From: Candidatus Levyibacteriota bacterium
GTDB lineage: Bacteria; Patescibacteriota; Microgenomatia; Levybacterales; UBA12049
DNA: 64,000 nt
Assembly: GCA_041906785.1 (NCBI GenBank)
Contig: JAYRIM010000029.1
Span: forward strand, 1,149-65,148
Direction of reading: 5' to 3'
Each line of letters begins with the position of its first letter. Within the stretch, counting starts at the first letter, position 1. The notes below the pieces were generated by a model that was not told the origin of the DNA, searched no databases, and worked only from the letters and a program-made list of their open reading frames with translations. The position numbers and the translations under genes are program-made. Shown piece after piece: positions 21,291 through 43,542 of the stretch.

Positions 21291-22130
21291 ATGGGAAAAA
21301 TAAGAGTAAAAGTCATCGGCGACGAACAAGCCGAGAAAGAACAACAAGCAGAAGCAAAAAAACGCGCAGAAGCGAAAAAGATTGAAGCATATAAACGCGA
21401 AAATCTTGAAAAGCAGACTGGTGATAAAACTGTAGAAACAATTGAAAAACCAGAAGAGATAAAAGAAGCAAAACCTAAAACTGTAAAGAAAAAGTTTGAA
21501 AAGGATGTAACGAAGAAGCGCTCAAATAAATTTGATGAGGTAGCTAAACTTGTTGATAAAAATAAAACATATTCTCTTCAAGAAGCTGTTTCACTTTTAC
21601 CAAAACTTCAAAGAGCAAAATTTGATGAAACAGTGGAGCTTCATATCAATACGACAGATAAAGGAGTTTCCGGAAACGTGACACTTCCTCACGGCACAGG
21701 AAAGACAGTTCGGATTGTGATCGCAAACCAATCTGAAGATCCGAAAGGCGTTGAAGAATTAGTAAAAAAAGTTGAGAGTGGAACAATTGACTTTGATGTA
21801 CTTCTCGCAACACCTGAAACAATGCCTAAATTAGCGAGAATTGCTCGATTTCTAGGACCACGCGGACTTATGCCAAATCCGAAAAACGGTACAGTAACTC
21901 CAAAACCGCAAGAAATGGCGAAAAAGTTTGAGGGTGGACAAATGAATTTTAAAGCAGAAGCGAAATTTCCACTGTTACACTTATCAGTAGGAAAAGTATC
22001 GTTTGGAGATAAAAAATTAGGAGAAAATGTAAAAGCTGCGATAGAAGCTGTACAGTTACAGAATATAAAAAGCGTAACACTTAAATCGACGATGTCTCCT
22101 GGAATGAAACTCGATGTCAGCAACCTCTGA
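21291..22130 (+). CDS. rplA: 50S ribosomal protein L1 with a ~75-aa Lys/Glu-rich N-terminal extension
   Basis: 279 aa. The L1 core begins around KFDEVAKLVDKNKTYSLQEAVSLL, and the preceding K/E-rich segment is an extension. Confidence 0.9.
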   Translation: MGKIRVKVIGDEQAEKEQQAEAKKRAEAKKIEAYKRENLEKQTGDKTVETIEKPEEIKEAKPKTVKKKFEKDVTKKRSNKFDEVAKLVDKNKTYSLQEAVSLLPKLQRAKFDETVELHINTTDKGVSGNVTLPHGTGKTVRIVIANQSEDPKGVEELVKKVESGTIDFDVLLATPETMPKLARIARFLGPRGLMPNPKNGTVTPKPQEMAKKFEGGQMNFKAEAKFPLLHLSVGKVSFGDKKLGENVKAAIEAVQLQNIKSVTLKSTMSPGMKLDVSNL

Positions 22131-22133
22131 TAG

Positions 22134-22170
22134 AAGTTACAAGTTACAAGTTATAAGTTATAAGTAATGA
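22134..22170. repeat. Heptamer tandem repeat, (AAGTTAY)x4-5
   Basis: aagttacaagttacaagttataagttataagtaatga, directly after the rplA stop codon. Confidence 0.8.
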
Positions 22171-22190
22171 GTCGAAATCAACTCCTAATT

Positions 22191-22245
22191 CACGACACTT
22201 CACAGAAGTTAGTCCCCTTGTGGGATCACTCGTAACTCATAACTT
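22191..22245 (+). repeat. Conserved 45-nt motif, family D, copy 2
   Basis: cacgacacttcacagaagttagtccccttgtgggatcactcgtaactcataact. Confidence 0.6.
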
Positions 22246-22285
22246 TCTCTTGCATTCCCCTTCTTTAGCCTACTATACTACTCTT

Positions 22286-24859
22286 ATGGACCCTATTTCC
22301 GAAAAACCTTCATTTTCACTACGAAATTGGCTTACAACACCAAATGGAAAAAAAGTTCTTGTACTATTTGGTGTTAGTTTAAGTGTTTTTTTAGTTTCAT
22401 TTTTAACCTTTAATCCCGTAAAAAATAAACCCACTCAAAATCAAATTTCTAGAAAGAATAACTCGACAGAGAAAACGCTTGTCTACCCTGCTCCATCCCT
22501 CGAATTCGGAGCATATACACTACAAGGTATATTTCCTTCTGTTCCCGAAACTGTTTCTTCTTATACAGTTAAAACGAACTTGAGCCAGGAAGAAATGAAA
22601 GCTCTTGCTCAATTATTCGGATTAACAGAAGAGAAAAAATTAACAGAGCCTTTCGTTCTTTTTTACAATACAACCGATCCAGAATTCCGAGGCATGTTGT
22701 ATATAAATCAGCAAACAGGTGCCTTCTCTTTCCAATCATACGGATCTCATAAACCGAAAGATGTATCAGATTCTTCGCCAGCTGTAATCGCAAAAACATA
22801 TGTACAGCAATTAGGATTTGATGATGGTACATTTACAGAGCCTGTTACATATAAAGAAAAAACATTTCCAAACATAACATATGTAGAGTTTCATCGAGAT
22901 TGGCAGAAGGTTGAGTTACCAATTCTCAGTACAATTGGGCTTTTAAATCTTCCTGAAGGGAAACCACTGAATACACTGACATTAGGAGAACTTGAACCAT
23001 TTACGATTAAAAACCCAGATATCATACAAACATCAAATAATCAGGATGGTACAAGCCGTCCGAATGACTTTAATACTGTTACAGTAGCAGTCAGTAAGGA
23101 CGGGACAATATTATCGATTGAATCGAACATTCGAAAAATTATTGGAACAACAAGAGTCACTCGAGATGATCTTTTAACACCAGAAGAAGCATTACAGCAG
23201 TTTACAAATCATACTGGTGATTTTTCACTCACGATCCCCGCAGGAACAGGTTCTATCGCTTGGGATAAAGTGTATCCAGAGAATATCGCAAAAGCGAAAA
23301 GTGCAATCATCACAGATTATATCCTCACGTATTTAGAAAATCCTCCTAGTATTGCCCAGAATAATATCGTTCCAATGTATACCATCCGAGGAATCGCTAC
23401 GTTAGACTCAGGTTATACAGTTCGTTTTATTCAAACGCTACCAGCATTAAAGGATGGAAGTTCAATATTTGCTAAAGAAGCTACTTCAAAATCACTGGCA
23501 AAAACTCAATCAACTGTTCTTGCCGCAAAAGACAGTTTACAACTTCAGCCATATTATCCATCAGGAACAATTATTCCTACACCTACTCAAGTAGCTGGAG
23601 GTGAAATAGAATTTCCGGCCCCAACCCCGACAATCAATCCTTATTTCGCAAAATGTCCGGACTGGACAAATGGCACAACATCGAAAATACAAGTTCCAGG
23701 TCTTGGTGAAATGGTTGTAGCCATAAGCCAATCATTTTACAATCCAGATAAAAAAGAGCTGGATCGCCATGGCCCGCACACTTTTTTCTTTCGTTCTGCC
23801 ACATTTCCCGTAAGTGATATTGAAGATGTAAAAAATAAATTCTTCTTTGGAGCCGATGACCTCAGTAAACCCCCTGGCCCATTTGAGAAGCAACTAATGA
23901 TAAACGTTGCAAAAAGAACGATGGGAGATATCACTGCATCTACTGTTGATGAGATGTATGCATTGTTTAAAAGTCTCAATCGACCTTTTACAAATAGCCC
24001 ATGCGACACTTCCTCACAGTTTGAGCGTCACGCACCTCCAGACCTACGCAATTGCAAGTATAACCCTACTACCTATGAAGGTGCTGGCTTAGATATTCCT
24101 AGACTCCAAAAACTTGGTGATAATGTTGCAAAAAGATTACTGCAAGTCCAGCAAAATGGGACAATGCAATCCCTAGTTTCAGAACCAGACGTTTTTCCTA
24201 AAGAAACAATCTTTGCATTTGGTTATATTTTCTCTAGTGCAACTCCAAATATGTACTACGGTGATACAAAAGAGAGGTTTAAAGCCTGTTACATTACAGG
24301 TACATCGCCAGTTCTCTATTTATATCCTGAAAAAGATAAAAACGTGTCTGTACAAATTGATGCACCGCTGACGTACACTGATCCTTCCATCATGAATAAT
24401 GAGTGGTCAGTAATAGCTCACACAGATGGTTCAGTTAATGCAACTGCAAATTATACTCGCCCATTCTTATATTATGAATATGATCGTACGAAGATACAGA
24501 TTTCAGAACCTTTAGAAGGATTTGTTGTTACGAAAGACAGTTGGAAAAATGAAGTTCAGAAGATAGCTAAATCACTTCAATTGACAAACGCTGAAACAAA
24601 CTCGTTAATAACAGAAGTCCATAATGTAGTAACAAATCTATCAAATACAGTACAATATGTTAAACTTTCACTGGTTGAACAAAATGAAATTACTAAGAAA
24701 CTTCCATTAACGATCTCTCCTAAACCTGACAACATATATCGAATACATATTGCTGTTACACCATTTGATACGTTTAGAACAGTAAACGAGCAAAACATTC
24801 AACCGGTTGTACGAAAAGGATTTACCGTTGTAGAACTTGGCGCATTTGACGTAAAGTAA
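22286..24859 (+). CDS. Large hypothetical membrane-anchored or extracytoplasmic protein (~858 aa)
   Basis: The ORF opens at a GTG at 22220 that lies inside the conserved motif D. The first ATG is at 22286 (MDPISEKP...), followed by a TM helix (VLVLFGVSLSVFLVSFLTF). No family was recognised. Confidence 0.6.
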   Translation: MDPISEKPSFSLRNWLTTPNGKKVLVLFGVSLSVFLVSFLTFNPVKNKPTQNQISRKNNSTEKTLVYPAPSLEFGAYTLQGIFPSVPETVSSYTVKTNLSQEEMKALAQLFGLTEEKKLTEPFVLFYNTTDPEFRGMLYINQQTGAFSFQSYGSHKPKDVSDSSPAVIAKTYVQQLGFDDGTFTEPVTYKEKTFPNITYVEFHRDWQKVELPILSTIGLLNLPEGKPLNTLTLGELEPFTIKNPDIIQTSNNQDGTSRPNDFNTVTVAVSKDGTILSIESNIRKIIGTTRVTRDDLLTPEEALQQFTNHTGDFSLTIPAGTGSIAWDKVYPENIAKAKSAIITDYILTYLENPPSIAQNNIVPMYTIRGIATLDSGYTVRFIQTLPALKDGSSIFAKEATSKSLAKTQSTVLAAKDSLQLQPYYPSGTIIPTPTQVAGGEIEFPAPTPTINPYFAKCPDWTNGTTSKIQVPGLGEMVVAISQSFYNPDKKELDRHGPHTFFFRSATFPVSDIEDVKNKFFFGADDLSKPPGPFEKQLMINVAKRTMGDITASTVDEMYALFKSLNRPFTNSPCDTSSQFERHAPPDLRNCKYNPTTYEGAGLDIPRLQKLGDNVAKRLLQVQQNGTMQSLVSEPDVFPKETIFAFGYIFSSATPNMYYGDTKERFKACYITGTSPVLYLYPEKDKNVSVQIDAPLTYTDPSIMNNEWSVIAHTDGSVNATANYTRPFLYYEYDRTKIQISEPLEGFVVTKDSWKNEVQKIAKSLQLTNAETNSLITEVHNVVTNLSNTVQYVKLSLVEQNEITKKLPLTISPKPDNIYRIHIAVTPFDTFRTVNEQNIQPVVRKGFTVVELGAFDVK

Positions 24860-24905
24860 AAGTTTTAAATTTTTAATTATATTTTTGACTTTTGATTTTT
24901 TACTT

Positions 24906-26075
24906 TTAATCTTCTATCACATATCCCTGATTTTTCTTTGTAGCAATAGTATCTTCGGGTAAACCTAATTTCATTAATTTTTGTCGAACTCTTCTGACAA
25001 GCTGATCAATTGCCCAGTCTGAATATTTCTCTTGTGACTCTTCTTTCCAGACAGCTTGTGCAATCTCATCCCGGGTTACAATTTTTCCTTTATTTTGTAA
25101 AAAGTGTCGTAACATTCTTCTTTCAGATGGTGAAAAAGTCGACGTTACTATAGTATTGTTTATTACAATATCTTTTTTATTTGTAACATTTATCGTTGTG
25201 GCATCTGCATAGTATGTTTTTACATAATCCCTGAGAAGCGCAACACGAATAGTAAAAGAGTCTCCATGAGGTACAAGAAAACCTGTATTCACAAGATATG
25301 TTATAGTTTGTTTTTCTTCTGGAGTAAAATGCATCTCTTCTCTTACAAGTTTTCTCAACACATCATGCTCCCATTCCTCTAATTCTGTCATTATTGTATT
25401 CAATCGTAAAATCATACCATCATGCGTAAATAATGTGGAACGATCGTTAGTCTTCGCTAAATGTCTTAGAGCTTCACGTACTAACCATAAACGATCACCG
25501 CATTGGGTAATGATAAGTTCCTGTAAAGCCTTATCAAGAGAAAAGTTATATTCTTTAGCAAGTTCTTGAATAAATGATCGAACTTCTTCAGTCGTATATG
25601 GCCTTTTAATAAAAATATTATGATACAGAGAAGAAAAATGAGATAATTTTTTAACATATGAAGGTGCTGTTATATTCTTCTTAAAAAAATAAATTATTGA
25701 ACATTGTTCCTGCGATAATGCAAATGTGTTAAAAATTGGCAATAGATCAAACCGTTCTGTTAAAAGCAAATCCGCATTCATAAGAATGATAACTAAATTT
25801 TTCTTACCTCGTTGACCAGCAAATTCATTCAGAAGAGAAATAACTTGTTCTTTCGTATCATGGAGATGAACATGTAAATCGAGAGATGTAATAAAAGGAA
25901 GTGTTTTATCAGCATAACGAAGCGGATTTGTTTGGAGGGAATCAACTATTTGGGGAACTCTGTATGCTTGACCTCGTGAAGAATAATTAACAGCAGACGC
26001 TGACTCTCCTCTATTTACCACATCTATAAAAGCATTTGCGCAGTCTGTTAACCAGTTTAAAAATACTGAGATCAT
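24906..26075 (-). CDS. Transcriptional regulator with a C-terminal OmpR/PhoB-type winged-helix domain and an uncharacterised ~280-aa N-terminal domain
   Basis: 389 aa. The C-terminus (ERRMLRHFLQNKGKIVTRDEIAQAVW...AIDQLVRRVRQKL...GYVIED) matches the trans_reg_C pattern. There is no receiver domain. Confidence 0.55.
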   Translation of the reverse strand: MISVFLNWLTDCANAFIDVVNRGESASAVNYSSRGQAYRVPQIVDSLQTNPLRYADKTLPFITSLDLHVHLHDTKEQVISLLNEFAGQRGKKNLVIILMNADLLLTERFDLLPIFNTFALSQEQCSIIYFFKKNITAPSYVKKLSHFSSLYHNIFIKRPYTTEEVRSFIQELAKEYNFSLDKALQELIITQCGDRLWLVREALRHLAKTNDRSTLFTHDGMILRLNTIMTELEEWEHDVLRKLVREEMHFTPEEKQTITYLVNTGFLVPHGDSFTIRVALLRDYVKTYYADATTINVTNKKDIVINNTIVTSTFSPSERRMLRHFLQNKGKIVTRDEIAQAVWKEESQEKYSDWAIDQLVRRVRQKLMKLGLPEDTIATKKNQGYVIED

Positions 26076-26222
26076 ACTCTAGGACGCCATTATATCACAT
26101 CTATTGTCAAACTGACAATTTATTGTCAGAAATTGTTATAGCATCCATGACAAGTTGATAATTAAGACTCATATATATACTCAAGCTCCTACTTCGCAAG
26201 TTTTTTATCATGAGAAATAAAT

Positions 26223-27626
26223 ATGTCACGCGAAGGAGATTATTATCTTGTAAACTTAGCAAACCAGGCAGGAAGAAAAGAAATTGTCCCTTATGTAGAC
26301 CAGGTAATTCGTAATTTCACACAATTAGGAACAGTCGTAAGCCCCACTGGCCGTTCAGTACCGAAGGATATACTGGGAACTGACGAATCTGACGATATAT
26401 TTGATAGGCCGACGATAACTCCTGCAGGTATCAGACAGATTTTTTCAGAGTATATTATAGATCTGGATCATGATGATACCCCTGGAAAAGTGGCTGATGT
26501 CGTAAATTTCATGTTATTTGATGAGAGAAATCCTGAACATGAAAATCCATTTAATCCTCAAGCTGCAGAACTTCATGATGTCTTTGTGGCAACGCATGAT
26601 CCTTTATCGCAAGAAATAGCGAGAGAACTTTGGGAATATGAACAGAGAGAAGCCTTAAGAAGACAGTTAGAGTTCCGAGTTAAAAGAAATATCGATATTA
26701 GAATCATAGGTCAACTTGCATCTGGAAAAACTACATTTCTTCATACAGTTTCGCGAGAGTTAGCATTAGAAGAGGCAAACCTTGGAGTTTCTGCCAGTGA
26801 ACCTGAAGACCTAGAAAACGACTACCCAGAGCTTGCAGTACAAAACAGCTATGAATACGCAAGAGATTTATCACGAGGAGCAGAGGCAACATTCGGAACA
26901 GAAACAGTACAGCTCTTTAGCTATGCCACACATAATGGAGACCTTGCAGAAGTTACGATTCATAGTTCAGGTGGACATGTCCGAGCTGATAGACCATATG
27001 ATTATATAGATTTTTCTGTAGCAGCTTTTTTTATTGATTACCACTTAATGGAACAACTCACTCAGTTAGATACAGCGACTGATCCTCAAACAGTTTTGGA
27101 AAATAATGAAACGGTTTTAGAAACTGTACGCAGTTTACTGGCACGATTACAAGATTGGCATCAAGTAGATGGTGCGAAACTTGGTGTACTTACAAAATTA
27201 CCTCATGGTCAACCTATTACTAAAAAAATGTTTGAGGTAGTCAATAGAGCATATAAAAGAGTTCTCGCATATGCAGAAGCACATTACGAAGAGATAACAG
27301 ATGACTTTATTTACTCTGAAGGTATGGAACTAGATCCGACCATGCTTGATCCACAGGACGTCAGAAAAACTGCCAGCGAGTGGTGGCCTATCTACGATGA
27401 TGAACCGACATTTTCAGGCACTGTTCAGGTAGCAAAACGACTAACAGAACTTGCAGTGCTAGGCGAAAAGAAAAAAGTTTTAGGAGAAACACAACTGGTA
27501 ACATTTGATCCCACCAATAATAATCCCGGATTGATCTACTACGAACAGCTACCAAATAATAACGACTCTACAACAAAAAGGAATGATACGTATGACCAAG
27601 GCACTATTTTTAATGCAAACATGTAA
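26223..27626 (+). CDS. Uncharacterised P-loop NTPase
   Basis: 467 aa. Walker A IIGQLASGKTTFLHTV is present, and a Walker-B-like VAAFFIDYH may be. No family was assigned. Confidence 0.5.
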   Translation: MSREGDYYLVNLANQAGRKEIVPYVDQVIRNFTQLGTVVSPTGRSVPKDILGTDESDDIFDRPTITPAGIRQIFSEYIIDLDHDDTPGKVADVVNFMLFDERNPEHENPFNPQAAELHDVFVATHDPLSQEIARELWEYEQREALRRQLEFRVKRNIDIRIIGQLASGKTTFLHTVSRELALEEANLGVSASEPEDLENDYPELAVQNSYEYARDLSRGAEATFGTETVQLFSYATHNGDLAEVTIHSSGGHVRADRPYDYIDFSVAAFFIDYHLMEQLTQLDTATDPQTVLENNETVLETVRSLLARLQDWHQVDGAKLGVLTKLPHGQPITKKMFEVVNRAYKRVLAYAEAHYEEITDDFIYSEGMELDPTMLDPQDVRKTASEWWPIYDDEPTFSGTVQVAKRLTELAVLGEKKKVLGETQLVTFDPTNNNPGLIYYEQLPNNNDSTTKRNDTYDQGTIFNANM

Positions 27627-27995
27627 CAAAATTTTATGAATGTCATTCTGACAAAGTTTTGTCATATCTTTTCTCAAGCATCACTGACGGAAATGGATTA
27701 TTTTGGTAGTATGCACAGCGCTGTATATCATTCTAATAATACATATTTTTTATGAATGTTGCGACATCTGAACTCTCTGTATTACCATTGCGTTAATATG
27801 ATGTATTCAACCTTTGTAGCAGGAAAAAATATTGTGTCGGAGAGCTCTACAAGCTCGTATTGTAAGTTTCTAACATACTCTCTGATATCTCTCACCCTCC
27901 TCTCGTTTCTTTTAGAATATATAAAGTTCTAAAGCTTCAAAACCAATCTGTACAATGTACGTAATTTACCTTATGATAAAAAAGGAACCAATAGT

Positions 27996-29549
27996 ATGAC
28001 TACCCGAAAATTTCTTAAAGTATTCTGTTTGCTTTTCTTAATCGCATTACAATTGACAAACCCTTCGGGTTCATACGCTCAGTCTTCAAGCAAGTTAGAA
28101 TCATGTTTCCAATATTATAATTACGGAAAAGTTAAAGCTGAATTAGTTACTGAACGGAATGACTATAATTCAGGAGAGTCAGCACGCATTCTAGGAACAG
28201 TTACAAACGAAAATAGTTTTCCTCTTCGAGATGTTGTGCTGTACGCACAATTAAAACGAATTAATAATGAGCTCTCATTTAATGAAAACGGACATTATCT
28301 TATTGATCGCTTTACTGTAAAACAAGAACTCAATTTCCTTCCCCATGAAGTTAAAAATATAGACGTTTCTTTTCCAATAAACGCCTCATATCCAAATGGC
28401 GAATACGAAGTTCATTATTTTATTTATTCTCCTTTAGGTTTCCATTATGGAGGAAGACCATTTCTTGAGGAGGATGTCGCTGGAATATCTTCCTTCACTA
28501 TAACAAACGGAAAAAATCCTGATGTATTCTTTGATGTAGGAAATGTACAGGTTAATAGCGTATCACAAAAACTTCGCGGCGCAACGCAAGAATTTACTCA
28601 AGATTCTCTTTCCTTCTCCATCCCCGTGATTGATACTCGCCCGTATAAATCTGCGGTCCAAGTGTCTGTCCGCTGGTATCAATTTGAAGACACGTTTGAA
28701 CAAAATATTCTTAAAACAGAAGAAGCAGTTTACCAGCCGCCTGATCAGACAATCCAACTTACATTTTCTCCTCCAGTTCCTGGTGCATATGTACTAGTTC
28801 TTGAGATAGATGAACCTGTCCGGTCCATGTTTAAATATCGTTTTGCGAAAATAGGGGCTGGCTCATCAATATTACGAATGAATGACTTAGGTATTACAGC
28901 ATATCCCCCGACTACTGATGATCGAGCATTTGTCTGTTTCCATGCACCGTCATCTGTGTCTACTATAGAAACTACTGTCAAACTTGCTATCTTAGATGAT
29001 AAAAAAAATCCAGTTTCATCTATTGAAGAATCCCAATCATTTCCACCAAATGTTTTAGCGCTCAGCCTACCATTATCGAAATTAAAAAATAAAAACGATT
29101 TTTGGATTCAAACCACATTTATACCGAAAGATACGAATATCAAACAGCAAAAAGCTGAAATACATTATACTTGCGATATATTTTCCGATAGTGTCACAGC
29201 TCTAAAATTACAATATAATGCAACAGAAAAAAAGCAGTTGACTGTTCAGTCAATAGATCTTTGTGGTAAATCCTCAACTGGCTATGTGGAAGAAATAAAA
29301 ATTTTTAAAGATAATAAAACTGTTCTAGAAAAATATAATGTTACAGATGGTATAGTTACTGTAGCATCTTTAAAACCTGGAACATATAAAGCATCTGCCA
29401 AGAATGGTAAGCTAGCCGCATCACTAACATTTACCATAGCTGAAGGGAATAGTTTTGTTATGCTTATTGTTACTCTTGGCTTAGCATTTATGTTTTTCGT
29501 AGGAGTTGCATTTATATATCGTTTGCGAAAAAGTAAACCAATAGTATGA
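27996..29549 (+). CDS. Hypothetical cell-surface protein (signal peptide plus C-terminal TM anchor)
   Basis: 517 aa. N-terminal signal peptide (FCLLFLIALQLTNPSGSYAQ) and C-terminal TM anchor (VMLIVTLGLAFMFFVGVAFIYRLRKSK). Confidence 0.55.
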   Translation: MTTRKFLKVFCLLFLIALQLTNPSGSYAQSSSKLESCFQYYNYGKVKAELVTERNDYNSGESARILGTVTNENSFPLRDVVLYAQLKRINNELSFNENGHYLIDRFTVKQELNFLPHEVKNIDVSFPINASYPNGEYEVHYFIYSPLGFHYGGRPFLEEDVAGISSFTITNGKNPDVFFDVGNVQVNSVSQKLRGATQEFTQDSLSFSIPVIDTRPYKSAVQVSVRWYQFEDTFEQNILKTEEAVYQPPDQTIQLTFSPPVPGAYVLVLEIDEPVRSMFKYRFAKIGAGSSILRMNDLGITAYPPTTDDRAFVCFHAPSSVSTIETTVKLAILDDKKNPVSSIEESQSFPPNVLALSLPLSKLKNKNDFWIQTTFIPKDTNIKQQKAEIHYTCDIFSDSVTALKLQYNATEKKQLTVQSIDLCGKSSTGYVEEIKIFKDNKTVLEKYNVTDGIVTVASLKPGTYKASAKNGKLAASLTFTIAEGNSFVMLIVTLGLAFMFFVGVAFIYRLRKSKPIV

Positions 29550-30865
29550 AAAAAATATTTTTTGTTGTTTTTTTATTATGTGTCGGAATATTTTCTTTAC
29601 AAGCAGTATCTCAGGTCGATGCAGATTATACTAGTATGCGAATTCCCCCGATTGGAGATAATCCAGATAACTATCGTACTGACTGTTATGGCCTAACAAC
29701 ATCGGAAAATCTCTCAGTACAAGTAAAGAAAAATCAGGTGGATCTCGCATCAACATCATCAAATGCATGTACCTTTACAATGGACGTGCGAGCTCGTGGT
29801 GAATGGGAATCAGTAGGAGCCCATGAAGATTCTCCGCCTTTTGGTTGGCGTGGACAGCCAGTATGGAATCCTATTACTTTCCGATCAGATTATGGAGTAG
29901 TCGCTGGAGGATTTAGTGGATTTAGTGTTACCTGCACTGACCCAGGCTATTCACTTCCTAATGCATTACCTAGCTATGTGGAACTAGTTAAAGAGGAAGA
30001 CCTTTTTGCTACTGACCCTGCTGTAGCATCTGGAAAACGGTATTATTTCCGCCTAAAGTCAGACGCGCCACAAACAGGTACATTTAATATTCTTGCTCAA
30101 GCATCGTACTCATGCCAACTTGACGCAGATATTGGTTCGATCTGGGGCAGAGTTATAATGCAAACGATTCAACCTGGCAGAAACTATTATTCCTATTGTG
30201 CAGGTGCTGAAGTCATAGATAAGAGCTCTCATCAAACATCTTTTAATTATCGCATAAGCCTTGAAAACGGCTGTCTCGCCTCTCCTCCGCCACCTAGCCC
30301 AACAGTCACTCCCCAACCTCCTGCCTCTTCATCATGTGAACCGATTACACTCAGTGGAGAGTTAAAAACCGGAGGGACAATCACACTAACAGCAACAAAG
30401 CGCGGGTCAGAATCACCCGGCGCAGGAACCTTTCATGTCACTAAGGACGCAAATGAACTAACTACTTCCCCATTAATTGGACCGACTGTCACAACAGCTC
30501 TCGACCCTTCAACGAATCAAAATGTAAATGTTTACACAACAAGATGGCCATATACACTTACAAACTCTGGAACATATACGATTTCGCTTGAATATTCTCC
30601 TGCTGTCCAGCAAATAGAAAACACTAACCATCCGTTTACGTTTTCTTCATTTTTCAAATTTATGACAAACAGTTGGAAATCATTAGGAAAAAAAGAAACA
30701 AATTTACAAAAAACGACAATAGCAAAAAAAGAACCTAAGCCGAATGTTCTGAGCGCGACATCACAACGCTCTATACAGCTCTATCAATTCCAACTTACTC
30801 CTACGCCAGCCTCAGCGATAATAAGTAGAACATGTGCTGAAATTAAGTTCACAGTTGCCCAGTAA
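29546..30865 (+). CDS. Hypothetical secreted protein
   Basis: 439 aa with an N-terminal signal peptide (IFFVVFLLCVGIFSLQAVSQ). The start codon overlaps the preceding stop (ATGA), suggesting translational coupling. Confidence 0.55.
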   Translation: MKKIFFVVFLLCVGIFSLQAVSQVDADYTSMRIPPIGDNPDNYRTDCYGLTTSENLSVQVKKNQVDLASTSSNACTFTMDVRARGEWESVGAHEDSPPFGWRGQPVWNPITFRSDYGVVAGGFSGFSVTCTDPGYSLPNALPSYVELVKEEDLFATDPAVASGKRYYFRLKSDAPQTGTFNILAQASYSCQLDADIGSIWGRVIMQTIQPGRNYYSYCAGAEVIDKSSHQTSFNYRISLENGCLASPPPPSPTVTPQPPASSSCEPITLSGELKTGGTITLTATKRGSESPGAGTFHVTKDANELTTSPLIGPTVTTALDPSTNQNVNVYTTRWPYTLTNSGTYTISLEYSPAVQQIENTNHPFTFSSFFKFMTNSWKSLGKKETNLQKTTIAKKEPKPNVLSATSQRSIQLYQFQLTPTPASAIISRTCAEIKFTVAQ

Positions 30866-30877
30866 TTCTGCGAAACG

Positions 30878-30906
30878 TTGACAATACCCCTACCTCATGG
30901 TATTAT
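30878..30906 (+). promoter_or_regulatory. Sigma70-like promoter of rplJ-rplL
   Basis: TTGACA (30878-30883), a 17-nt spacer, then TATTAT (30901-30906). Confidence 0.55.
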
Positions 30907-31055
30907 GTACGAACCTAAGACAGTAGGCAAAACAATAAGACCTACCGAGGAGCGGACTGAGCAAAGCAAAGGAGCTCGCCTGCGCACGAAGTGCAGACAG
31001 GCGCGGAATTTCTTTACAATTATTAATCCGCATCACTCACGGACATCTTAGGTAG
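30907..31055 (+). promoter_or_regulatory. rplJ 5' leader, a candidate L10(L12)4 autoregulatory leader
   Basis: ~150-nt GC-enriched untranslated leader with potential stems (gcctgcgcacgaagtgcagacaggc). In many bacteria the L10 leader is an autogenous control element. Confidence 0.35.
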
Positions 31056-31613
31056 ATGTCCTTTTTTATGGATACAGCAACTAAAATTTCAGCAAACAAA
31101 AATAAAAAAGCTGCAATCATCAGCGAAGTAACCGCAAAGGTTAAAAAAGCAAAAGGATTCGTATTTACGAATTATCAAGGGCTAACCCATCATCAGCTTG
31201 AAGATCTTAAGCGAGGAATGAAAAAACTCGACGCTGAATATGTTGCTACTAAAAATACGTTACTCAAACGAGCCCTCCAAGAAGGAACTGATAGCTCACA
31301 ACTCATAACTGATAACTTTGATGGTCCTACAGCAACAGTATTTATGTATAAGGATGCAGTCGAACCGATTAAAGAATTGACGAAGTCAATAAAAGCATTA
31401 CAACTCCCGGTCATCAAATTCGGCATTATTGAAGGTAAAAGAGTTGATGCAGCCCAAATTGAAAGATTGGCTACCCTCCCGCCGCTGAATGTTCTCCGTG
31501 CACAACTTGTTGGTAACTTACAATCACCTATTGCAGGATTTCATAGAGCATTGCATTGGAATTTACAGAAACTTGTTTTAACATTGAGTGCAATTCAACA
31601 AAAGAAACAATAA
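31056..31613 (+). CDS. rplJ: 50S ribosomal protein L10
   Basis: 185 aa. KGFVFTNYQGLTHHQLEDLKRGMKK is L10-like, and the gene sits immediately upstream of rplL. Confidence 0.9.
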   Translation: MSFFMDTATKISANKNKKAAIISEVTAKVKKAKGFVFTNYQGLTHHQLEDLKRGMKKLDAEYVATKNTLLKRALQEGTDSSQLITDNFDGPTATVFMYKDAVEPIKELTKSIKALQLPVIKFGIIEGKRVDAAQIERLATLPPLNVLRAQLVGNLQSPIAGFHRALHWNLQKLVLTLSAIQQKKQ

Positions 31614-33024: not shown

Positions 33025-33252
33025 ATGACTGATCCCACCCTAAATAATAAAAAACAACTTTCTATTGAAAAACTACCTGATCTTCTTACAGTACGTGAAG
33101 TTGCAGAAATTCTTCGAGTTTCACCTTTAACAATAAAACGTTGGGGTAAACGCGGAAAACTTCCAGCGATTCGTATTAATTCCCGGGGCGACAGACGCTA
33201 TAAAAAAGAAGCAGTGTTATGGTTACTTGGTATTCAACAAAAGACGGAGTAA
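33025..33252 (+). CDS. Excisionase/MerR-like helix-turn-helix DNA-binding protein
   Basis: 75 aa. LLTVREVAEILRVSPLTIKRWGKRGKLPAIRI matches the excisionase-family HTH pattern. Confidence 0.6.
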   Translation: MTDPTLNNKKQLSIEKLPDLLTVREVAEILRVSPLTIKRWGKRGKLPAIRINSRGDRRYKKEAVLWLLGIQQKTE

Positions 33253-33337: not shown

Positions 33338-34348
33338 TTGAATACCATTGAAACATATATTTTTTTTATATATAGTAAACATATGAATGATGGACCAATG
33401 ATGGAAGTTACTACACCTGTTATTAAAACAGGCCTTGATCGTGCTTTATCAACCCCGGAAATGAGAGACGTCATGCAAACAGAAGCTGCACCAAAAAATC
33501 TTCGTAAGCTAGGTGAAAAAATGAGAGTAGCATCCTTAAGTTTTCTTTATGAACAACAACATGAAAATCGGATTGGTGTAAACCAGCTATCTATGCAAGA
33601 AGCTATTAGATCTCTCCATATTTTATCAACTCCTGGATGGAAACTTTTTGATGAAGATCCGGATGAAGAATTTAAAGCTGGCGAATATCGTACAGACCTT
33701 CTTCAATTTGGTGACAAGATTCCTCCCCACCCAAATGATGTTCCGAGTCTCATGGCACATTTTGGTAGTAGATTAAGTGAACTTTTGGAAGATTGTCCAC
33801 CTGATGATGCCGATTTACTCGCTACATGGGCAGACTCTGTTTTTGTAGCAATTCATCCTTTTCGAGACGGAAATGGCAGAACAGGCAGATCACTTGTAGA
33901 ATATATTCGGTATAGTATAGCTCGTAAACACGGAACTGAGTATAAACCTCTCCATTTATCGCGTACTGAAGAAGCTGCTGGAGAAATGGTAACTGACCAA
34001 TTAGGCCAAGTGCAGTATGAACTCGGCCTATTTAATGGTACGACCGATAAAAGTGGTAATATTCTTCGTACAGCGCAAGACGCATATGATAGTAACCCGA
34101 CCACATATTTTGTAGATGTCGCGGATCGAATTCGTGAAGGAATTGTAACTACTGAAAGTGTTCAGGATTTAAGAAAATATCCAAAATTAGCAAAACTTGC
34201 AGAAGGAATACAAACAATAGGAAACTGGAAAAATTATGAAACTAACTCTATGGCAGCAGATGCAGGAGCAGAAGCGTATAGTAAAGAATTAGAATTCAAG
34301 TTGCCAAAGGTAAGAGCAGAATTAAAAGATCTAGCCAGAGCAGCGTAA
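33338..34348 (+). CDS. Fic/Fido-domain protein (putative AMPylase)
   Basis: 336 aa with the canonical Fic motif HPFRDGNGRTGR. The true start may be the Met at about 33383. Confidence 0.8.
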   Translation: MNTIETYIFFIYSKHMNDGPMMEVTTPVIKTGLDRALSTPEMRDVMQTEAAPKNLRKLGEKMRVASLSFLYEQQHENRIGVNQLSMQEAIRSLHILSTPGWKLFDEDPDEEFKAGEYRTDLLQFGDKIPPHPNDVPSLMAHFGSRLSELLEDCPPDDADLLATWADSVFVAIHPFRDGNGRTGRSLVEYIRYSIARKHGTEYKPLHLSRTEEAAGEMVTDQLGQVQYELGLFNGTTDKSGNILRTAQDAYDSNPTTYFVDVADRIREGIVTTESVQDLRKYPKLAKLAEGIQTIGNWKNYETNSMAADAGAEAYSKELEFKLPKVRAELKDLARAA

Positions 34349-34355
34349 TACGATT

Positions 34356-34601
34356 TTACTTCGTCCCTTCTTTTCCTTCTTCTGAAGTTTCGAAATCAAA
34401 CGGACCGCCATGTTCGGTAGGAAAAATACTTGGTATACTTCCTGGTTCTTCTTCATCGGGGACCCCATCAGTAACCCCAGCCGTACCAATTTCTTCTTTC
34501 GGCTCAGCCTCTTTTATATCAGTTCTTTTCGGTCTTGGTGTAAGGTTTATATCTTCTGGTTCCCCCCAATGACCTCCTTCATGTTCACGGCCTCCACCCA
34601 T
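34356..34601 (-). CDS. Small acidic hypothetical protein
   Basis: 81 aa, Glu/Gly/Pro-rich. Coding status is uncertain. Confidence 0.25.
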   Translation of the reverse strand: MGGGREHEGGHWGEPEDINLTPRPKRTDIKEAEPKEEIGTAGVTDGVPDEEEPGSIPSIFPTEHGGPFDFETSEEGKEGTK

Positions 34602-34656: not shown

Positions 34657-37476
34657 TTACTTTCTACCAAATCGTAACCAGGATCGCCAGCCACTAGACT
34701 TTACAGGTTCAGGCGGAGGTTGCTGACCTGCATCTGACGGCGATGATGTAGCCGGAGGTAATGGAGGAGGTGCATTCCGTAGAAATGAAGGTACATCTAA
34801 ATCAGAGGCTGTCGTAGCGGTGCCAGTTGTTGCTGGAGGTGTTGTGCTTGAAGAAGCAGGTCGCGGTGGAAATGTCGGAACATCTAAATCGTCTTCTGCA
34901 CCCCTAGGTGTAAAACGAACTGGAACACTACGACCTGCTGAAACCCCTGTTTCTTCCTCGTGACTTTCATCTACAGCCGAAGACACTGCTACAGGCTCTT
35001 CGACACTTGTCCTTCCTGCTCTTCTTGCATCCATAATGGCATCAAATCTACCAAGCAGTTCTTCTGTGACTCTTCCTTCTACTAGTCTTCTCAACTCTTC
35101 ATCAGGTATCTCCCGAGCCATATCTAACAAAGATTCGATATTCGTACTAACCATTTCAATATCATTATCACTTAAATCATTCACTCTCGAACTAACATCT
35201 CTCAACTCTACTCTTAATTCCTCCATTGCCTGTACAGGAAACTCGCCAACTCTCCGCTGTAATTCAGTAGTCACGCGAGATTGCGCTTGTGCAACCTGTG
35301 GGTTTTCATCAGGATTCCCAGTTAATGCAGCTCTAAATTCAGCCATCAGATCATCTGCCGAAAGATTCTGGAGTCTGTCGGTTTCTCGTGATTCAGTAAC
35401 ATGCTGCTCTAGTGTGTGTAATTCTTCTTTTAATAACGCAACTATCTCCGGCGAACCTCCTTGTGTCTCAAATTCTTCTATAGCTTGATTAAAATTTCCT
35501 ACGCCATATAAAAACCGTCTCTGGAAGGGACTTGAGTTTCGTTTGTGCATCTCTATTAATTGGGGTGCAGAAATGTTTAATGCATACATTAACATTCTTT
35601 TATCAAGTGACTCTTCTGCTTCTTCATACTCAGATAATGCAGTCCGTATGGCTGCTGCAGAATTTAGTTGACCCAATCTTTCTCGATATCTATTGACAAT
35701 GGGACCAAATGTAGGCTCCATAATTCTCATAGCAAATTCCGCTGCGTTCCTATTTCCAGACTCTTGTAATCCATAAATTCTAGAGAGAATACCTTGTGCT
35801 CCATTTTCTAATACTTGAGGATCTCTTCGAACCGCAGCATCAATATCCATCAACTCTCTATATGTGTTACTTGATATGCCTAATCCTGTTGCTACTTGAT
35901 CAATTGCCTCCATTACCGCAGCTGTTTGAGGATCATTAGCATTTTCAATTGGTCTATCCCAATTTTCAGCAACTGTTCTATGTAATGCTATTGCCTGATC
36001 AACAGTCATGCGAGGTTCATCCTCAGGCTCTATTTTCGCTCTAGCTAATTCGAGCTGCTCTTTTAGATATGCGAGTACTTCTTCTGACCTTCCTGGACGA
36101 GCCTCAAACTGCCGTATTTCCTCTTCAGCTTCCTGTAAATGCATTCGATAAGGATACAGCCCTTCCTGTGCATTAATCCTATTCAACGTAGCTAATCCAG
36201 GGGCAGCAACTCGTAATGCATGCATCATAGGTACAATATCATCAGGATCGAACTCCTCATTTTCTCTACCTCCCTCCCATACTAATCGATACGCGTTCCT
36301 CACTGCCTCAACTGTATTTAAGCTTCCTACTTGCGTCCTATATCGTCTTATAGGATCTGCAAATATTGGTTCTAGATTTCTAAACAGAAAATCTGTAGCT
36401 GTTGTATTCCCCCGCCCCTGATATCTTGCAAGTTGATCGAGAACAGTATCTTCACGTGAAAAACCTCCTTGTTGCTGAATAAGAACATCAAGTAATCCTC
36501 TATAATCGTCCTCATCAATGCCAGTAGATCTTGCTATTTCAGCAATGTCACGATCAAGTGCAGCTCGAAGGTTATTATCAGGAGTCTGTTGATATTGCGC
36601 AAATCGTATAAGTGTATCTACATGCAGTCTCGCAGCTTGACGCAGAGCTGCTTCACTCTCTTCATCTGTTCGTTGATCCCCCGTTTCGGTTCTATCGGTT
36701 GTTGGTTGTGCAATAACAGGCTCAGGACTCGCTGGAAGAGCTGCTCGCAGCGCTGCTTCATCTGGCAATGATGCTCTCACTGTAGAAACCAAATGTTCAA
36801 GAGCAGCTCTCGCTTGAGGATTTCTCACTCGTGCAGCTGCAGCAGTCAGTTCATCGAGTCTACTTACCAGTCTTGGAAGTGAAGCTAATGCCGTACGTGG
36901 ATCTGATGGTAATCTGAGAATATCTCCACGAACTCGTTCTAGATGTCCAGCCGGGAATCCTGTTTCTCGTTGGATATCTCGAACTACTGCCATCACTTCC
37001 TTTTGTGTAATTCCTTCAGTGGTTATTGCTGTCGTGTAGCGGGAATAAACACTTCCTGCATCTGCAGGATCACCACCTGGTATTCGTTCTGGTTCAGGTG
37101 CAGCAACTTCATCAACAACTTCTGGCTCAACTACACGAGCTTCTTCCACTGCAGTTTCTTCTCGAGCTGCCTCTTCTAATACTGGTTCTGTTCGAGTTGC
37201 AGCCTCTGCTTGTCGTCTTCTTTCAGCCAAAACTGCCGCTGGGTCGATAACTACCTCTGTGCCAAACCGCATTGTACTCCTCATAGGAGATACAGCTTCA
37301 GTATGCGTTGCAGCAACTTGTGGTCTTTCTTCTCCTGTCTCACCTCTTCGCTGTGACAATAAAGCGTTAGGATCGATAACTACCTCTGTACCAAAGGTTA
37401 CTCTTCCCGCCGCTGGCTTTACCACTTCTGATGATTTTCTTGTTTGGTCTTCTGACCCTCCTGTTTCACCCGCCAT
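34657..37476 (-). CDS. Large (939 aa) Glu/Arg/Ala-rich alpha-helical protein with N-terminal duplicated motifs and C-terminal FtsZ-CTP-like DLDVP(S/T)F motifs
   Basis: Long ORF with GC content above its neighbours. N-terminal repeats VTFGTEVVIDPNALLSQRR and MRFGTEVVIDPAAVLAERRR. Internal duplicated ~55-aa helical segments (DFLFRNLEPIFADPIRRYRTQVGSLNTVEAVRNAY and AAEFAMRIMEPTFGPIVNRYRERLGQLNSAAAIRTAL). C-terminal DLDVPTFPPR and DLDVPSFLRN, then a basic amphipathic tail WRSWLRFGRK. Confidence 0.6.
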   Translation of the reverse strand: MAGETGGSEDQTRKSSEVVKPAAGRVTFGTEVVIDPNALLSQRRGETGEERPQVAATHTEAVSPMRSTMRFGTEVVIDPAAVLAERRRQAEAATRTEPVLEEAAREETAVEEARVVEPEVVDEVAAPEPERIPGGDPADAGSVYSRYTTAITTEGITQKEVMAVVRDIQRETGFPAGHLERVRGDILRLPSDPRTALASLPRLVSRLDELTAAAARVRNPQARAALEHLVSTVRASLPDEAALRAALPASPEPVIAQPTTDRTETGDQRTDEESEAALRQAARLHVDTLIRFAQYQQTPDNNLRAALDRDIAEIARSTGIDEDDYRGLLDVLIQQQGGFSREDTVLDQLARYQGRGNTTATDFLFRNLEPIFADPIRRYRTQVGSLNTVEAVRNAYRLVWEGGRENEEFDPDDIVPMMHALRVAAPGLATLNRINAQEGLYPYRMHLQEAEEEIRQFEARPGRSEEVLAYLKEQLELARAKIEPEDEPRMTVDQAIALHRTVAENWDRPIENANDPQTAAVMEAIDQVATGLGISSNTYRELMDIDAAVRRDPQVLENGAQGILSRIYGLQESGNRNAAEFAMRIMEPTFGPIVNRYRERLGQLNSAAAIRTALSEYEEAEESLDKRMLMYALNISAPQLIEMHKRNSSPFQRRFLYGVGNFNQAIEEFETQGGSPEIVALLKEELHTLEQHVTESRETDRLQNLSADDLMAEFRAALTGNPDENPQVAQAQSRVTTELQRRVGEFPVQAMEELRVELRDVSSRVNDLSDNDIEMVSTNIESLLDMAREIPDEELRRLVEGRVTEELLGRFDAIMDARRAGRTSVEEPVAVSSAVDESHEEETGVSAGRSVPVRFTPRGAEDDLDVPTFPPRPASSSTTPPATTGTATTASDLDVPSFLRNAPPPLPPATSSPSDAGQQPPPEPVKSSGWRSWLRFGRK

Positions 37477-37591
37477 ATACTATTATATTGATAGAAAATG
37501 TAAGAATTGTCCAGAAGAAAAAAAGTATTAAAGGTATCAGGAGCTTAATCAATAGTTAACTAGCAAACGCCAAGCATTTTTTATTCTTCTA

Positions 37592-39136
37592 CTATTGTCC
37601 ATTTTCCCGCTTATTTTCTCGAGCAGCATTCATTGAGTTTTTTACGAAATCCTCAGCCCAGGTATATATATTCCGTTCTTCCATGAGTTCTACCATTTCG
37701 TTTGTCCGCCTGACTTTCTCACGCACACCCATTTCTAACCCTGTTTTAATACTGTCAGCAACCTGTTCAATATCATATGGGTTTACTATAAGTGCAGCGC
37801 CTAAATCGATAGCTGACCCAGCGAATTGTGAGAGAACAAGCATGCCTGGATCTTCTGAAAATGATTGTGCGATGACAAATTCTTTTGATACTAAATTCAT
37901 TCCATCATCAAGTGGTGTAACTACAGCTAATCTCGCTTTCTTATAGAGATTTAATACTTCTTCGCGAGTGAATGACTGATGAATAACCTGAATAGGCCGC
38001 CATGTCTCTGTCGCATATTTGTCATTTATTTGTTTTACTAATGCGTTTACATCTTCTTTTAATTGTTTATATGTAGGAATTTCGCTTCGAGATGGAGACA
38101 TAACACCTAAATACACAGCTCGCTCACGATACTGCGGATATTTTTCGAAAAACCGATCAATTGCAGACAGTCGTAAAGGTACTCCCTTCGTATAATCGAG
38201 CCTATCTACACCGAGAATCACTTTATAGTTTTGAAAGAAAAAATCCAATGGATCAGAAATCTTTTCTTTCTGTTCTTCATTCTGCTCACCTCGTAGCATA
38301 TCTTGAAGAACTCGAAGTAAGAAAGAATCTTCAAGAGGTGGCGCCACGATTCTTTTGATAACATCTACATCAATGCCAAGCGGTAAATTCCGGACTGTTG
38401 TTATCTTTTTATCAAAATGTACCTGCCGTTTCTCTTCATCAATACGCACTGCCAATTCACGTTGGACTGTATTTAGGAAATTTTTCGCTTGATAATCACG
38501 ATGGAATCCCAGAAAATCACACGATAAAAGGCTCCATAAAATATCTTTTTTTACTGGAAGGATTCGGAAAATCTCCCACGTCGGCCATGGAATATGCCAG
38601 AAAAATGCGACTATCGTATCTTTCGGTCTTCCTAAATACATCGGAACGAGTGAAAGCTGATAATCATGGATCCAAATAAATGTTTTTCCTGAAATTTCTT
38701 CTTTTATCGCCTGAGCGAATTTTTTATTAACTTCTTTATATCCTTCATACCATTCCTTACGGAATTGAGGTTTCTGGAATGCTATATGACAAAGAGGCCA
38801 GAGTGTCTGATTCGCGAAACCATTATAATATGCATGAATTTCTTCCTGAGAAAGGAAAATGCGCTTCATTGTATAATCGCCTTCGGTTCCTTTAATAGTG
38901 AGCTTCCCCTTCCTATCAACACCGATTTTATCTTCTTCTGTTCGCGCGCGTGCAATATATGTAGCTTTTGAGGCTTGAGCAAGGATATCAAAAGAGGAAG
39001 AAACACCCCCGGGGACGTTTTGCAAAACTATCTGATCGTTCTTGCGGATATTCATTTTCGTCTCGCCATCCGCAGCAATAATCGTCTTATAACCAAGACG
39101 ATCGAAATAATCACGCAAATCGTAAAAAGATGCCAT
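37592..39136 (-). CDS. otsA: Alpha,alpha-trehalose-phosphate synthase (GT20)
   Basis: 514 aa. IWIHDYQLSLVPMYL and FWHIPWPTWEIFRILP are hallmark OtsA motifs. Confidence 0.85.
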   Translation of the reverse strand: MASFYDLRDYFDRLGYKTIIAADGETKMNIRKNDQIVLQNVPGGVSSSFDILAQASKATYIARARTEEDKIGVDRKGKLTIKGTEGDYTMKRIFLSQEEIHAYYNGFANQTLWPLCHIAFQKPQFRKEWYEGYKEVNKKFAQAIKEEISGKTFIWIHDYQLSLVPMYLGRPKDTIVAFFWHIPWPTWEIFRILPVKKDILWSLLSCDFLGFHRDYQAKNFLNTVQRELAVRIDEEKRQVHFDKKITTVRNLPLGIDVDVIKRIVAPPLEDSFLLRVLQDMLRGEQNEEQKEKISDPLDFFFQNYKVILGVDRLDYTKGVPLRLSAIDRFFEKYPQYRERAVYLGVMSPSRSEIPTYKQLKEDVNALVKQINDKYATETWRPIQVIHQSFTREEVLNLYKKARLAVVTPLDDGMNLVSKEFVIAQSFSEDPGMLVLSQFAGSAIDLGAALIVNPYDIEQVADSIKTGLEMGVREKVRRTNEMVELMEERNIYTWAEDFVKNSMNAARENKRENGQ

Positions 39137-43176: not shown

Positions 43177-43542
43177 TTATTTCTTGAGACTTTTTATTAG
43201 CTGTGAAAGCAAATACCCAACCTCACTTCTTTTCCCTTCAATAACATCATATTGCTCATGAGTAAGAAATGATAAGTCAAGAGAAAGCTCAAATCCTGCC
43301 TCTAGCTCAGCAAGTGAACCATCTGCAGTATTCAGAAAATGTAAATAATCTTTTGTTGTATGTCTTCTGTATCCTTCCACTATCGTAAGCACTACTGATA
43401 CAGCTGCTCTTCGCAACTGACTTTTTAGCCCAAATTCCTCACTCTTAGGAAATTCTTCTGTAAATTTATAGACTAACAACACTAATTCACGAGCTCTTTG
43501 CCAAACAATCAATTTGTGATACCCTTTATTTTCTTTCTTCAT
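43177..43542 (-). CDS. Four-helix-bundle protein (TIGR02436 / '23S rRNA intervening-sequence protein' family)
   Basis: 121 aa. LIVWQRARELVLLVYKFTEEFPKSEEFGLKSQLRRAAVSV...GSLAELE is the typical family signature. Confidence 0.8.
   Translation of the reverse strand: MKKENKGYHKLIVWQRARELVLLVYKFTEEFPKSEEFGLKSQLRRAAVSVVLTIVEGYRRHTTKDYLHFLNTADGSLAELEAGFELSLDLSFLTHEQYDVIEGKRSEVGYLLSQLIKSLKK

Follow-up and report, generated by a model that had tools for sequence, protein, structure and literature searches.

Can a protein that does not belong to the FtsZ family carry the tail of FtsZ? The question is raised by an open reading frame (ORF) in a 64,000-nucleotide stretch of DNA from a Candidatus Levyibacteriota bacterium (assembly GCA_041906785.1, contig JAYRIM010000029.1, positions 1,149 to 65,148 of the forward strand), which is called the window below. 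The ORF starts with ATG, lies on the minus strand at 34657..37476, is complete (939 codons plus stop), and encodes an acidic protein of ~104 kDa (pI 4.75, no Cys). The C-terminus of this protein is built like an FtsZ tail, with a ~110-residue disordered linker, one complete and one partial FtsZ peptide, and a terminal helix of the FtsA type. In FtsZ, the C-terminal peptide serves as a hub: FtsA, SepF, ZipA, MinC, SlmA, ZapD, and others read the Z-ring by way of it. To our knowledge, this peptide has been reported on no protein but FtsZ; a limited literature search, which is weak evidence, returned no report of a natural non-FtsZ protein with this peptide. We tentatively favor the reading that a young, fast-evolving scaffold has gained an FtsZ-tail-like module by which it may bind, at the membrane, to FtsA or SepF and act there as adaptor or decoy. 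The ORF and its C-terminal sequence had been singled out in a note made from the DNA letters (the original prediction), and both were confirmed as quoted there from the translation.

Residues 820-939 are rich in P, S, and T and are predicted to be disordered. They comprise the following features:

34690..35019, minus strand: C-terminal linker, residues 820-929, predicted disordered by AlphaFold2 (AF2), P 17%, S+T 25%, analogous to the FtsZ C-terminal linker
34858..34896, minus strand: motif 1, residues 861-873, EDDLDVPTFPPRP, FtsZ-peptide-like, partial
34774..34806, minus strand: motif 2, residues 891-901, SDLDVPSFLRN, FtsZ-peptide-like, complete
34660..34698, minus strand: C-terminal basic amphipathic helix, residues 927-939, SSGWRSWLRFGRK, putative membrane-targeting sequence

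The consensus of the FtsZ C-terminal peptide is D/E-I/V-P-x-F/Y-L-R/K (bioRxiv 10.1101/2023.08.29.555414), and another description gives eight residues, of which D, P, and F never vary, and after them a variable end of 1-10 residues whose net charge is positive in Gram-positives (PMC9939409). Motif 2 (892-901 DLDVPSFLRN, with the core DVPSFLR at 894-900) agrees with the consensus at 7/7 positions, and the match extends beyond it in the D-L-D prefix and in the N after R, as in the FLRN of B. subtilis. Motif 1 (863-869 DLDVPTF, with the core DVPTFPP at 865-871) keeps D, P, and F, has P-P instead of L-R, and reaches 5/7. The motifs are 29 residues apart, acidic residues lie ahead of each, and both are internal, ending 66 (motif 1) and 38 (motif 2) residues before the C-terminus. 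The acidic C-terminal tip of the single-stranded DNA-binding protein (SSB), D-D-D-I-P-F-COOH, sits at the free C-terminus, and the internal position of both motifs rules out an SSB-type tip.

The ends of real FtsZ proteins resemble motif 2 closely. The FtsZ of E. coli ends in ...YLDIPAFLRKQAD and that of B. subtilis in DIPTFLR followed by NRNKRG, and the C. glutamicum peptide that was crystallized with SepF, DDLDVPSFLQ, has eight contiguous residues (DLDVPSFL) identical to motif 2. Within the order, the supplementary FASTA files of PMC9871819 contain the Levybacterales FtsZ proteins OGH12179.1, ending in ...SIFDIPAFLRQKN (in longer form ...EESIFDIPAFLRQKN), and OGH51542.1, ending in ...EDDEWAVPAFLRRSKLK; in the same source, the FtsZ of Saccharimonas aalborgensis ends in ...DEDDTPAFLRRRKKR and that of CPR3 in ...DEFDIPTFMRQGK. 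The one-per-order bacterial FtsZ file of that study contains DLDVP (n = 25), DLDIP (n = 52), DLDVPTF (n = 8), and FLRN (n = 30). Since DLDVP, DLDVPTF, and FLRN thus occur in real FtsZs, each half of the two motifs is a natural FtsZ variant. A BLASTP comparison of the 123-aa tail with the full-length OGH12179.1 gave a single alignment, which placed SDLDVPSFLR on SIFDIPAFLR, the peptide of that FtsZ. The proposed resemblance to the FtsZ peptide is therefore borne out by the consensus and by the FtsZ ends of E. coli, B. subtilis, C. glutamicum, and Levybacterales. The FtsZ compared here is that of the same order in place of the genome's own, with which the original prediction had asked for a comparison, and it carries the same type of motif, so that the prediction is not refuted on this count as far as this comparison reaches.

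The resemblance has clear boundaries. Outside the 10-residue motif, the Levybacterales FtsZ tail, which is short and K/E/R-rich, shows no similarity to the P/S/T-rich tail of the 939-aa protein, and the short charged linker of the former differs from the P/S/T-rich linker of the latter. Like the FtsZ C-terminal tail, which consists of a C-terminal linker (CTL), a conserved peptide (CTC or CCTP), and a C-terminal variable region (CTV), the tail studied here has a disordered linker and an acidic run followed by D-[IV]-P-x-F-L-[RK]; unlike it, it is attached to no tubulin/FtsZ GTPase domain, carries the motif twice, and continues for 38 residues after motif 2. Searches of PDB sequences with the tail returned chance matches only and no FtsZ, probably due to the short query and to truncated PDB constructs. 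A contig from a distant organism, encountered in the metagenome scan described below (JGI contig Ga0074195_1000035; JGI, Joint Genome Institute), encodes an FtsZ-like ORF with GGGTGTG that ends in ...SDIEIIG, without a canonical C-terminal peptide.

To assess the rarity of the motif, stretches of 100 aa or more without a stop were taken from the window and 146 related loci (880,569 residues). The 7-residue consensus occurs once in this set, as motif 2. By chance, 0.55 matches would be expected in the whole set, 5.8e-4 in the 939-aa protein, and 6.8e-5 in the 109 aa of its tail. The relaxed core [LI]D[IV]P.[FWY] is found in the window only at motifs 1 and 2. With a position matrix made from 19 FtsZ peptides, motif 2 scored 28.1 bits and motif 1 scored 19.2 bits, and nothing else exceeded 14 bits in 844,432 positions. 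This matrix is biased, as it included peptides that had been retrieved by strings of the motif itself, and the scan was repeated with nine peptides picked by organism only. Motif 2 again came first, so that it is the top-scoring position with both matrices, which supports the peptide assignment of the original prediction. With the nine-peptide matrix, however, its score was 16.6 bits and the next site, in a spurious 106-aa stretch, reached 15.0 bits; the training peptides scored 19.5-30.7 bits, and a genuine actinobacterial peptide scored only 8.0. This matrix is small and over-fitted, and the statistical margin is modest. The chance origin of one such motif somewhere in a genome is not negligible. 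It is very unlikely that the extended match, the second copy 29 residues away, the disordered linker, the acidic residues, and the amphipathic helix are jointly accidental.

The basic amphipathic tail noted earlier is substantiated. The last 11 residues, GWRSWLRFGRK, have a hydrophobic moment of 0.90, which ranks first among 929 windows of the protein and is reached by 0.9% of shuffles, together with a net charge of +4, and AF2 models a short terminal helix at 930-935. The membrane-targeting end of E. coli FtsA, GSWIKRLNSWLRKEF (...NSWLRKEF), has SWLR in common with it. Like the FtsA helix, it follows a disordered linker at the very end of the protein, is basic and Trp/Leu-rich, and has a high hydrophobic moment; it differs in being short (11-13 residues, of which 930-935 are helical in AF2), and the actin-like domain of FtsA is absent. 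SepF, ZipA, and EzrA, which read the FtsZ peptide, likewise combine a membrane anchor with a long linker or a helical body, EzrA being a large all-helical repeat protein, and a role at the interface of Z-ring and membrane is predicted for the 939-aa protein. The polarity is opposite, as these three bind the FtsZ peptide and the 939-aa protein displays it, and none has sequence or fold similarity to it. A further parallel is the FtsZ of Mycoplasma genitalium, which binds membranes, as has been demonstrated, through a C-terminal amphipathic helix (bioRxiv 10.1101/2023.08.29.555414). Here too a division-related tail ends in an amphipathic helix, with membrane binding demonstrated in M. genitalium and predicted in our case; proteins of the M. 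genitalium type are true FtsZs without the canonical peptide, whereas the 939-aa protein has peptide and helix and no FtsZ core.

The remainder of the protein is organized as follows:

37057..37476, minus strand: N-terminal region, residues 1-140, acidic, A/E-rich, predicted disordered, with an AF2 predicted local distance difference test (pLDDT) score of ~25-42 and almost no secondary structure
37342..37404, minus strand: N-terminal repeat 1, residues 25-45, RVTFGTEVVIDPNALLSQRRG
37213..37275, minus strand: N-terminal repeat 2, residues 68-88, TMRFGTEVVIDPAAVLAERRR, with 9 contiguous residues identical to repeat 1
35020..37056, minus strand: all-alpha core, residues 141-819, ~30 helices by DSSP on AF2 models
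36016..36663, minus strand: internal repeat unit A1, residues 272-487, from self-BLAST and alignments
35362..36015, minus strand: internal repeat unit A2, residues 488-705, the unit best conserved in the homologue described below

The two 21-aa repeats (25-45 and 68-88) correspond to the duplicated N-terminal motif that had been pointed out before. A1 and A2 are a tandem duplication of a ~215-aa unit with ~30% identity; in self-BLAST of pieces, residues 362-475 matched 580-686 with 31% identity (E 1.6e-13). Shorter “RTGFP...EEL” modules also occur within 141-819. A scan of Pfam and NCBIfam assigned the protein to no family, Tubulin and FtsZ_C included, the GGG[TS]G[ST]G signature is absent from all six frames of the window, and the core is all-alpha, so that the statement that the protein has no tubulin domain holds. 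The 939-aa protein is thus not a member of the FtsZ family, as it has no GTPase domain, nor of the FtsA family, as it has no actin fold. The model of a core sub-domain (345 residues, pLDDT 76) gave no Foldseek match below E 0.1 in PDB and BFVD, with TM-scores of at most 0.2, and its fold is unrecognized. None of the large hypothetical proteins encoded elsewhere in the window proved to be a paralogue of the 939-aa protein. It has no signal peptide or transmembrane segment (the top 19-residue Kyte-Doolittle window is 1.04), and a cytoplasmic location is therefore expected.

Relatives of the protein are exceedingly scarce. Both a word-indexed search of 5.8 billion proteins and an exhaustive phmmer search of 1.84 billion representative proteins returned the 939-aa protein itself only. 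It had no match in a scan of GTDB genomes, no relative in PHROGs, PADLOC, or PDB sequences, and no tblastn match in 50,697 phage genomes. A family profile found nothing in the word index, the JGI metagenomes, or IMG/VR; the word-index test is weak, as it did not recover the 939-aa protein itself. The adjacent trehalose-6-phosphate synthase gene served as a syntenic anchor:

37592..39136, minus strand: otsA, upstream neighbor of the 939-aa protein gene; context only

A metagenome scan with otsA for positional homologues gave 64 loci, in which neither a relative nor the motif occurred. A tblastn search of 80 Levybacteria loci collected around mreB yielded the only detectable homologue, L001_880, an 880-aa ORF on CAZEJU010000007.1 (locus L001), which is part of the closest related metagenome-assembled genome (MAG). 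L001_880 lies directly downstream of otsA in the same orientation and is 24% identical to the 939-aa protein over 347 residues (E 1e-18), with a second alignment to the first repeat unit (E 2e-10). The otsA of one locus is 88% identical to that of the other, and the two ORFs are thus positional homologues whose divergence far exceeds that of the neighboring otsA.

Several features define these two proteins as a family, namely the position downstream of otsA, a homologous N-terminus, an A unit of ~215 aa followed by “RTGFP...EEL” modules, and a similar A/E/R-rich composition. L001_880 differs in having one A unit against two, an extra C-terminal helical module, and a different N-terminal repeat sequence. 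The N-terminal region (1-140) can be aligned weakly to the N-termini of L001_880 and of a 463-aa paralogue in the same locus (L001_463), which has only this region in common with the 939-aa protein. The two adjacent paralogues of L001 (16527-19169 and 19349-20740) are 64% identical over their first 87 aa and have unrelated C-terminal parts, a layout of common leader and variable cargo that is reminiscent of polymorphic effectors; L001_463 has no family in Pfam, PHROGs, PADLOC, or PDB. In more distant Levybacteria, whose otsA is ~50% identical, a different gene of ~300 aa lies downstream of otsA, and the occupation of this slot by another gene indicates that the family is young and clade-restricted. 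We regard the gene as a lineage-restricted one that encodes a cytoplasmic all-alpha scaffold, occurs only in a small clade of Levybacteria-type bacteria of the Candidate Phyla Radiation (CPR), and always lies just downstream of otsA. The linker, both motifs, and the amphipathic helix are all absent from L001_880, which ends in ...DEDEAIPPA, and the tail module is therefore a recent addition. On the conservation of the motif among homologues, by which the original prediction was to be judged, the outcome is accordingly unfavorable in part, as the sole homologue lacks the whole tail.

The gene itself is sound and native. Two Logan contigs from run SRR26835457 are 100% identical to the window and abut at ~residue 290 (36601-36607), inside the gene. 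A contig end and start at this point hint at a branch in the assembly graph, caused by strain variation or the internal repeat; mis-assembly was ruled out, since the junction falls inside a domain that can be aligned to L001_880. The other five frames of the tail stretch are full of stops, which indicates that the tail is truly coding. The GC content of the gene (0.39-0.47) exceeds that of its surroundings (~0.33-0.40), as had been noted before. The excess resides in codon positions 1 and 2 (0.62/0.47), and the GC content of third positions (GC3) is 0.24, compared with 0.21-0.32 in neighboring genes, and stays at 0.21-0.29 across all segments, the tail included (0.24). Because GC3 is native, the higher GC content reflects an A/E/R/P-rich protein composition, and a foreign origin inferred from GC is not supported; recent horizontal transfer of the gene is ruled out on the same ground. 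With K at 1.1% (10 residues) and R at 10.2% (96 residues), the protein has the lowest K and the highest R content among the 41 window ORFs of at least 150 aa. Its homologue is R-rich yet not K-poor (K 4.8%), so lysine depletion is not common to both. Upstream of the start codon (37477-37500, minus strand), a TATAAT hexamer ends 6 nt before the ATG, and nothing like a Shine-Dalgarno sequence can be seen; the mRNA may lack a leader or have only a very short one.

How the module might work can be outlined from its parts. The terminal helix would anchor the protein to the cytoplasmic side of the membrane, and the two peptides would dock into the FtsZ-tail pockets of FtsA and/or both pockets of a SepF dimer. 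D, P, and F, which both motifs keep, are the conserved SepF contact residues, and the SepF dimer has two identical peptide pockets (PMC7118173), so that two motifs on one chain fit it. They would suit the pockets of the dimer or neighboring FtsA subunits, and avidity could raise binding above the ~15 uM of a single peptide. The scaffold might thereby be brought to the division site and act as an adaptor; alternatively, it might occupy the anchoring sites of FtsZ, as a decoy or brake on division. CPR genomes keep ftsZ with ftsA in the dcw cluster (PMC9871819); no ftsZ, ftsA, or sepF was found in the window or in the flanks reached beyond both ends.

Two genes on the other side of the 939-aa protein gene had been mentioned as its neighbors:

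33025-33252, plus strand: MerR/excisionase-like helix-turn-helix (HTH) gene, matching excisionase-type PHROGs and PADLOC mad1
33338-34348, plus strand: Fic gene, with domain-level matches to the PADLOC models SoFic and PDC-S04

Both genes are real. A functional link is not supported, as the pair is convergent with the 939-aa protein gene, another ORF lies between, and its matches are to stand-alone Fic modules; the pair is probably a stand-alone toxin or defense-type module. The intervening region contains an ORF for a very acidic 81-aa protein (34356-34601, minus strand) that begins 55 nt downstream of the stop codon, is also called by the Logan gene caller, and has no family.

Several observations weigh against the docking of an FtsZ-like tail. 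Conservation of, or selection on, the tail module is not evident, given its absence from L001_880, and the module is known from one genome and one sequencing run. Motif 1 is incomplete, without the L-R half, and 38 residues follow motif 2, more than the 1-10 of FtsZ tails. In the nine-peptide matrix, motif 2 falls below the training range and is 1.6 bits above the next, spurious site, and a chance look-alike, SDADIPSFLHNA, exists in an unrelated PDB protein, a lysoplasmalogenase. These points would be explained if a fast-evolving disordered tail had drifted into D-V-P-x-F-L-R and been duplicated locally, without binding any FtsZ partner, the function of the protein residing in the helical core and being unrelated to division. 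The extreme rate of evolution of the family (24% identity against 88% for the adjacent otsA) would favor such drift, as would the absence of the tail from the homologue, the small margin obtained with the matrix built without motif-string searches, the near-match in PDB, and the expectation of 0.55 consensus matches in 0.88 M residues, at which single matches will occur somewhere. We consider a fortuitous resemblance somewhat less likely all the same, since the expectation within the 109-aa tail is only 6.8e-5, the match is longer than the consensus (the D-L-D prefix and the N after R), a second copy lies 29 residues away, and the disordered linker and the terminal amphipathic helix are independent features typical of division-protein tails. 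A direct descent from FtsZ, in which the 3' end of an ftsZ (the organism's own, a second CPR copy, or one of foreign origin) was duplicated and joined to the scaffold gene as its tail, with or without retention of function, would account for the order of linker, peptide, and basic end, and some CPR genomes do carry a second, divergent ftsZ (PMC9871819). Yet similarity to the Levybacterales FtsZ tail stops at the 10-residue motif, no frame holds a trace of a tubulin domain, the codon usage of the tail is native, and neither two motif copies nor an FtsA-like helix occurs in the FtsZ tails of the clade, which makes such a fusion highly improbable.

The tail could also have been directed at another cell. 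All cultivated Patescibacteria are obligate episymbionts on other bacteria (PMC11623550), and an effector delivered into the host cell might use an FtsZ-tail mimic and an anchor to block or hijack host division, its lysine depletion protecting it from lysine-directed tagging. The identity of the motif core to an actinobacterial FtsZ peptide would fit this, as would the rapid evolution and orphan status typical of host-interaction proteins, the K and R contents at the extremes of the window, and the L001 paralogues with a common N-terminus and different C-termini, as in polymorphic effectors. The protein has, however, no signal peptide, transmembrane segment, or recognizable secretion domain, secretion-system genes are not adjacent, the motif is an equally good match to the FtsZ type of the clade itself, and lysine depletion is absent from the homologue; a host-directed effector is improbable. 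Phages are known to encode FtsZ inhibitors, and the original prediction had considered a phage-like competitor for FtsZ partners, which might have been carried along with the neighboring HTH gene, of excisionase type by its PHROG matches, and the Fic gene, with its SoFic and PDC-S04 defense matches. This origin is largely refuted and has barely any probability left. It is contradicted by the lack of matches in the 50,697 phage records, PHROGs, PADLOC, and IMG/VR and of a viral structural match in BFVD, by the DNA pattern of the motif, which had 2 chance matches only in 2.9 million viral contigs, and by the native GC3. The chromosomal position beside otsA is moreover conserved in L001, where no HTH/Fic pair was seen in the 21 kb covered, and no integrase, tRNA, or repeats were noted in the window. 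A scaffold that has recently acquired an FtsZ-like docking module remains the reading that we tentatively prefer.

The window is otherwise typical of CPR bacteria in content, with many hypothetical proteins, a 2372-aa ORF, MreB, a PEGA protein, a sortase, and a trehalose/glycogen gene set. The best relatives of its MreB (71-86% identity) are in MAGs titled Levyibacteriota, Levybacteria, Microgenomates, or Patescibacteria, and no tRNA or Rfam family was found in the window. A 121-aa gene at ~43177-43542 (2426-2791 of locus L081), between amylase and glycosyltransferase genes, has Pfam matches to 23S_rRNA_IVP and bAvd. This bAvd-like gene lies 6 kb from the 939-aa protein gene, and a diversity-generating retroelement is probably not present, as no reverse transcriptase is found among the scanned window proteins. 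The genes for ribosomal proteins L1 and L10 are usually adjacent; here (21291-31613) they are ~9 kb apart, with five ORFs between them (879, 389, 467, 517, and 439 aa), four of which have no Pfam family and one only a Trans_reg_C domain. The 2372-aa ORF (51511-58629, minus strand) is located directly downstream of genes for an ABC ATPase (264 aa) and a MacB/FtsX-like permease (714 aa) on the same strand. Three short islands (7948-8355, 11440-12591, and 14766-15236) have a GC content of 0.54-0.58, compared with ~0.36, and their ORFs, where computed, a GC3 of ~0.65, compared with ~0.26 for the genome. They include a 383-aa P/T-rich ORF without a Pfam match and a 156-aa ORF with a signal-peptide-like start, and they have the appearance of recently inserted foreign DNA or of contamination in the bin.

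If the docking reading is true, the FtsZ hub can be tapped by motif mimicry from an unrelated scaffold, and the “landing-pad” peptide of FtsZ would be a transferable short linear motif that evolves on unrelated scaffolds, like clamp-binding or SSB-tip motifs. In its strongest form, which is less likely than not, the protein would be the first natural non-FtsZ protein to display bona fide FtsZ peptides, two of them, beside its own membrane anchor, a mimic that titrates or bridges FtsA or SepF and a new means of braking or repositioning CPR cell division. A bolder variant of this mimicry would have it target the division machinery of the host bacterium. Should the motif be inert, the case would still serve as a warning that a rapidly evolving orphan gene can acquire FtsZ-like strings in its disordered tail. 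Should it be active, it would offer a simple handle on division control in CPR bacteria, the cell biology of which is almost unknown.

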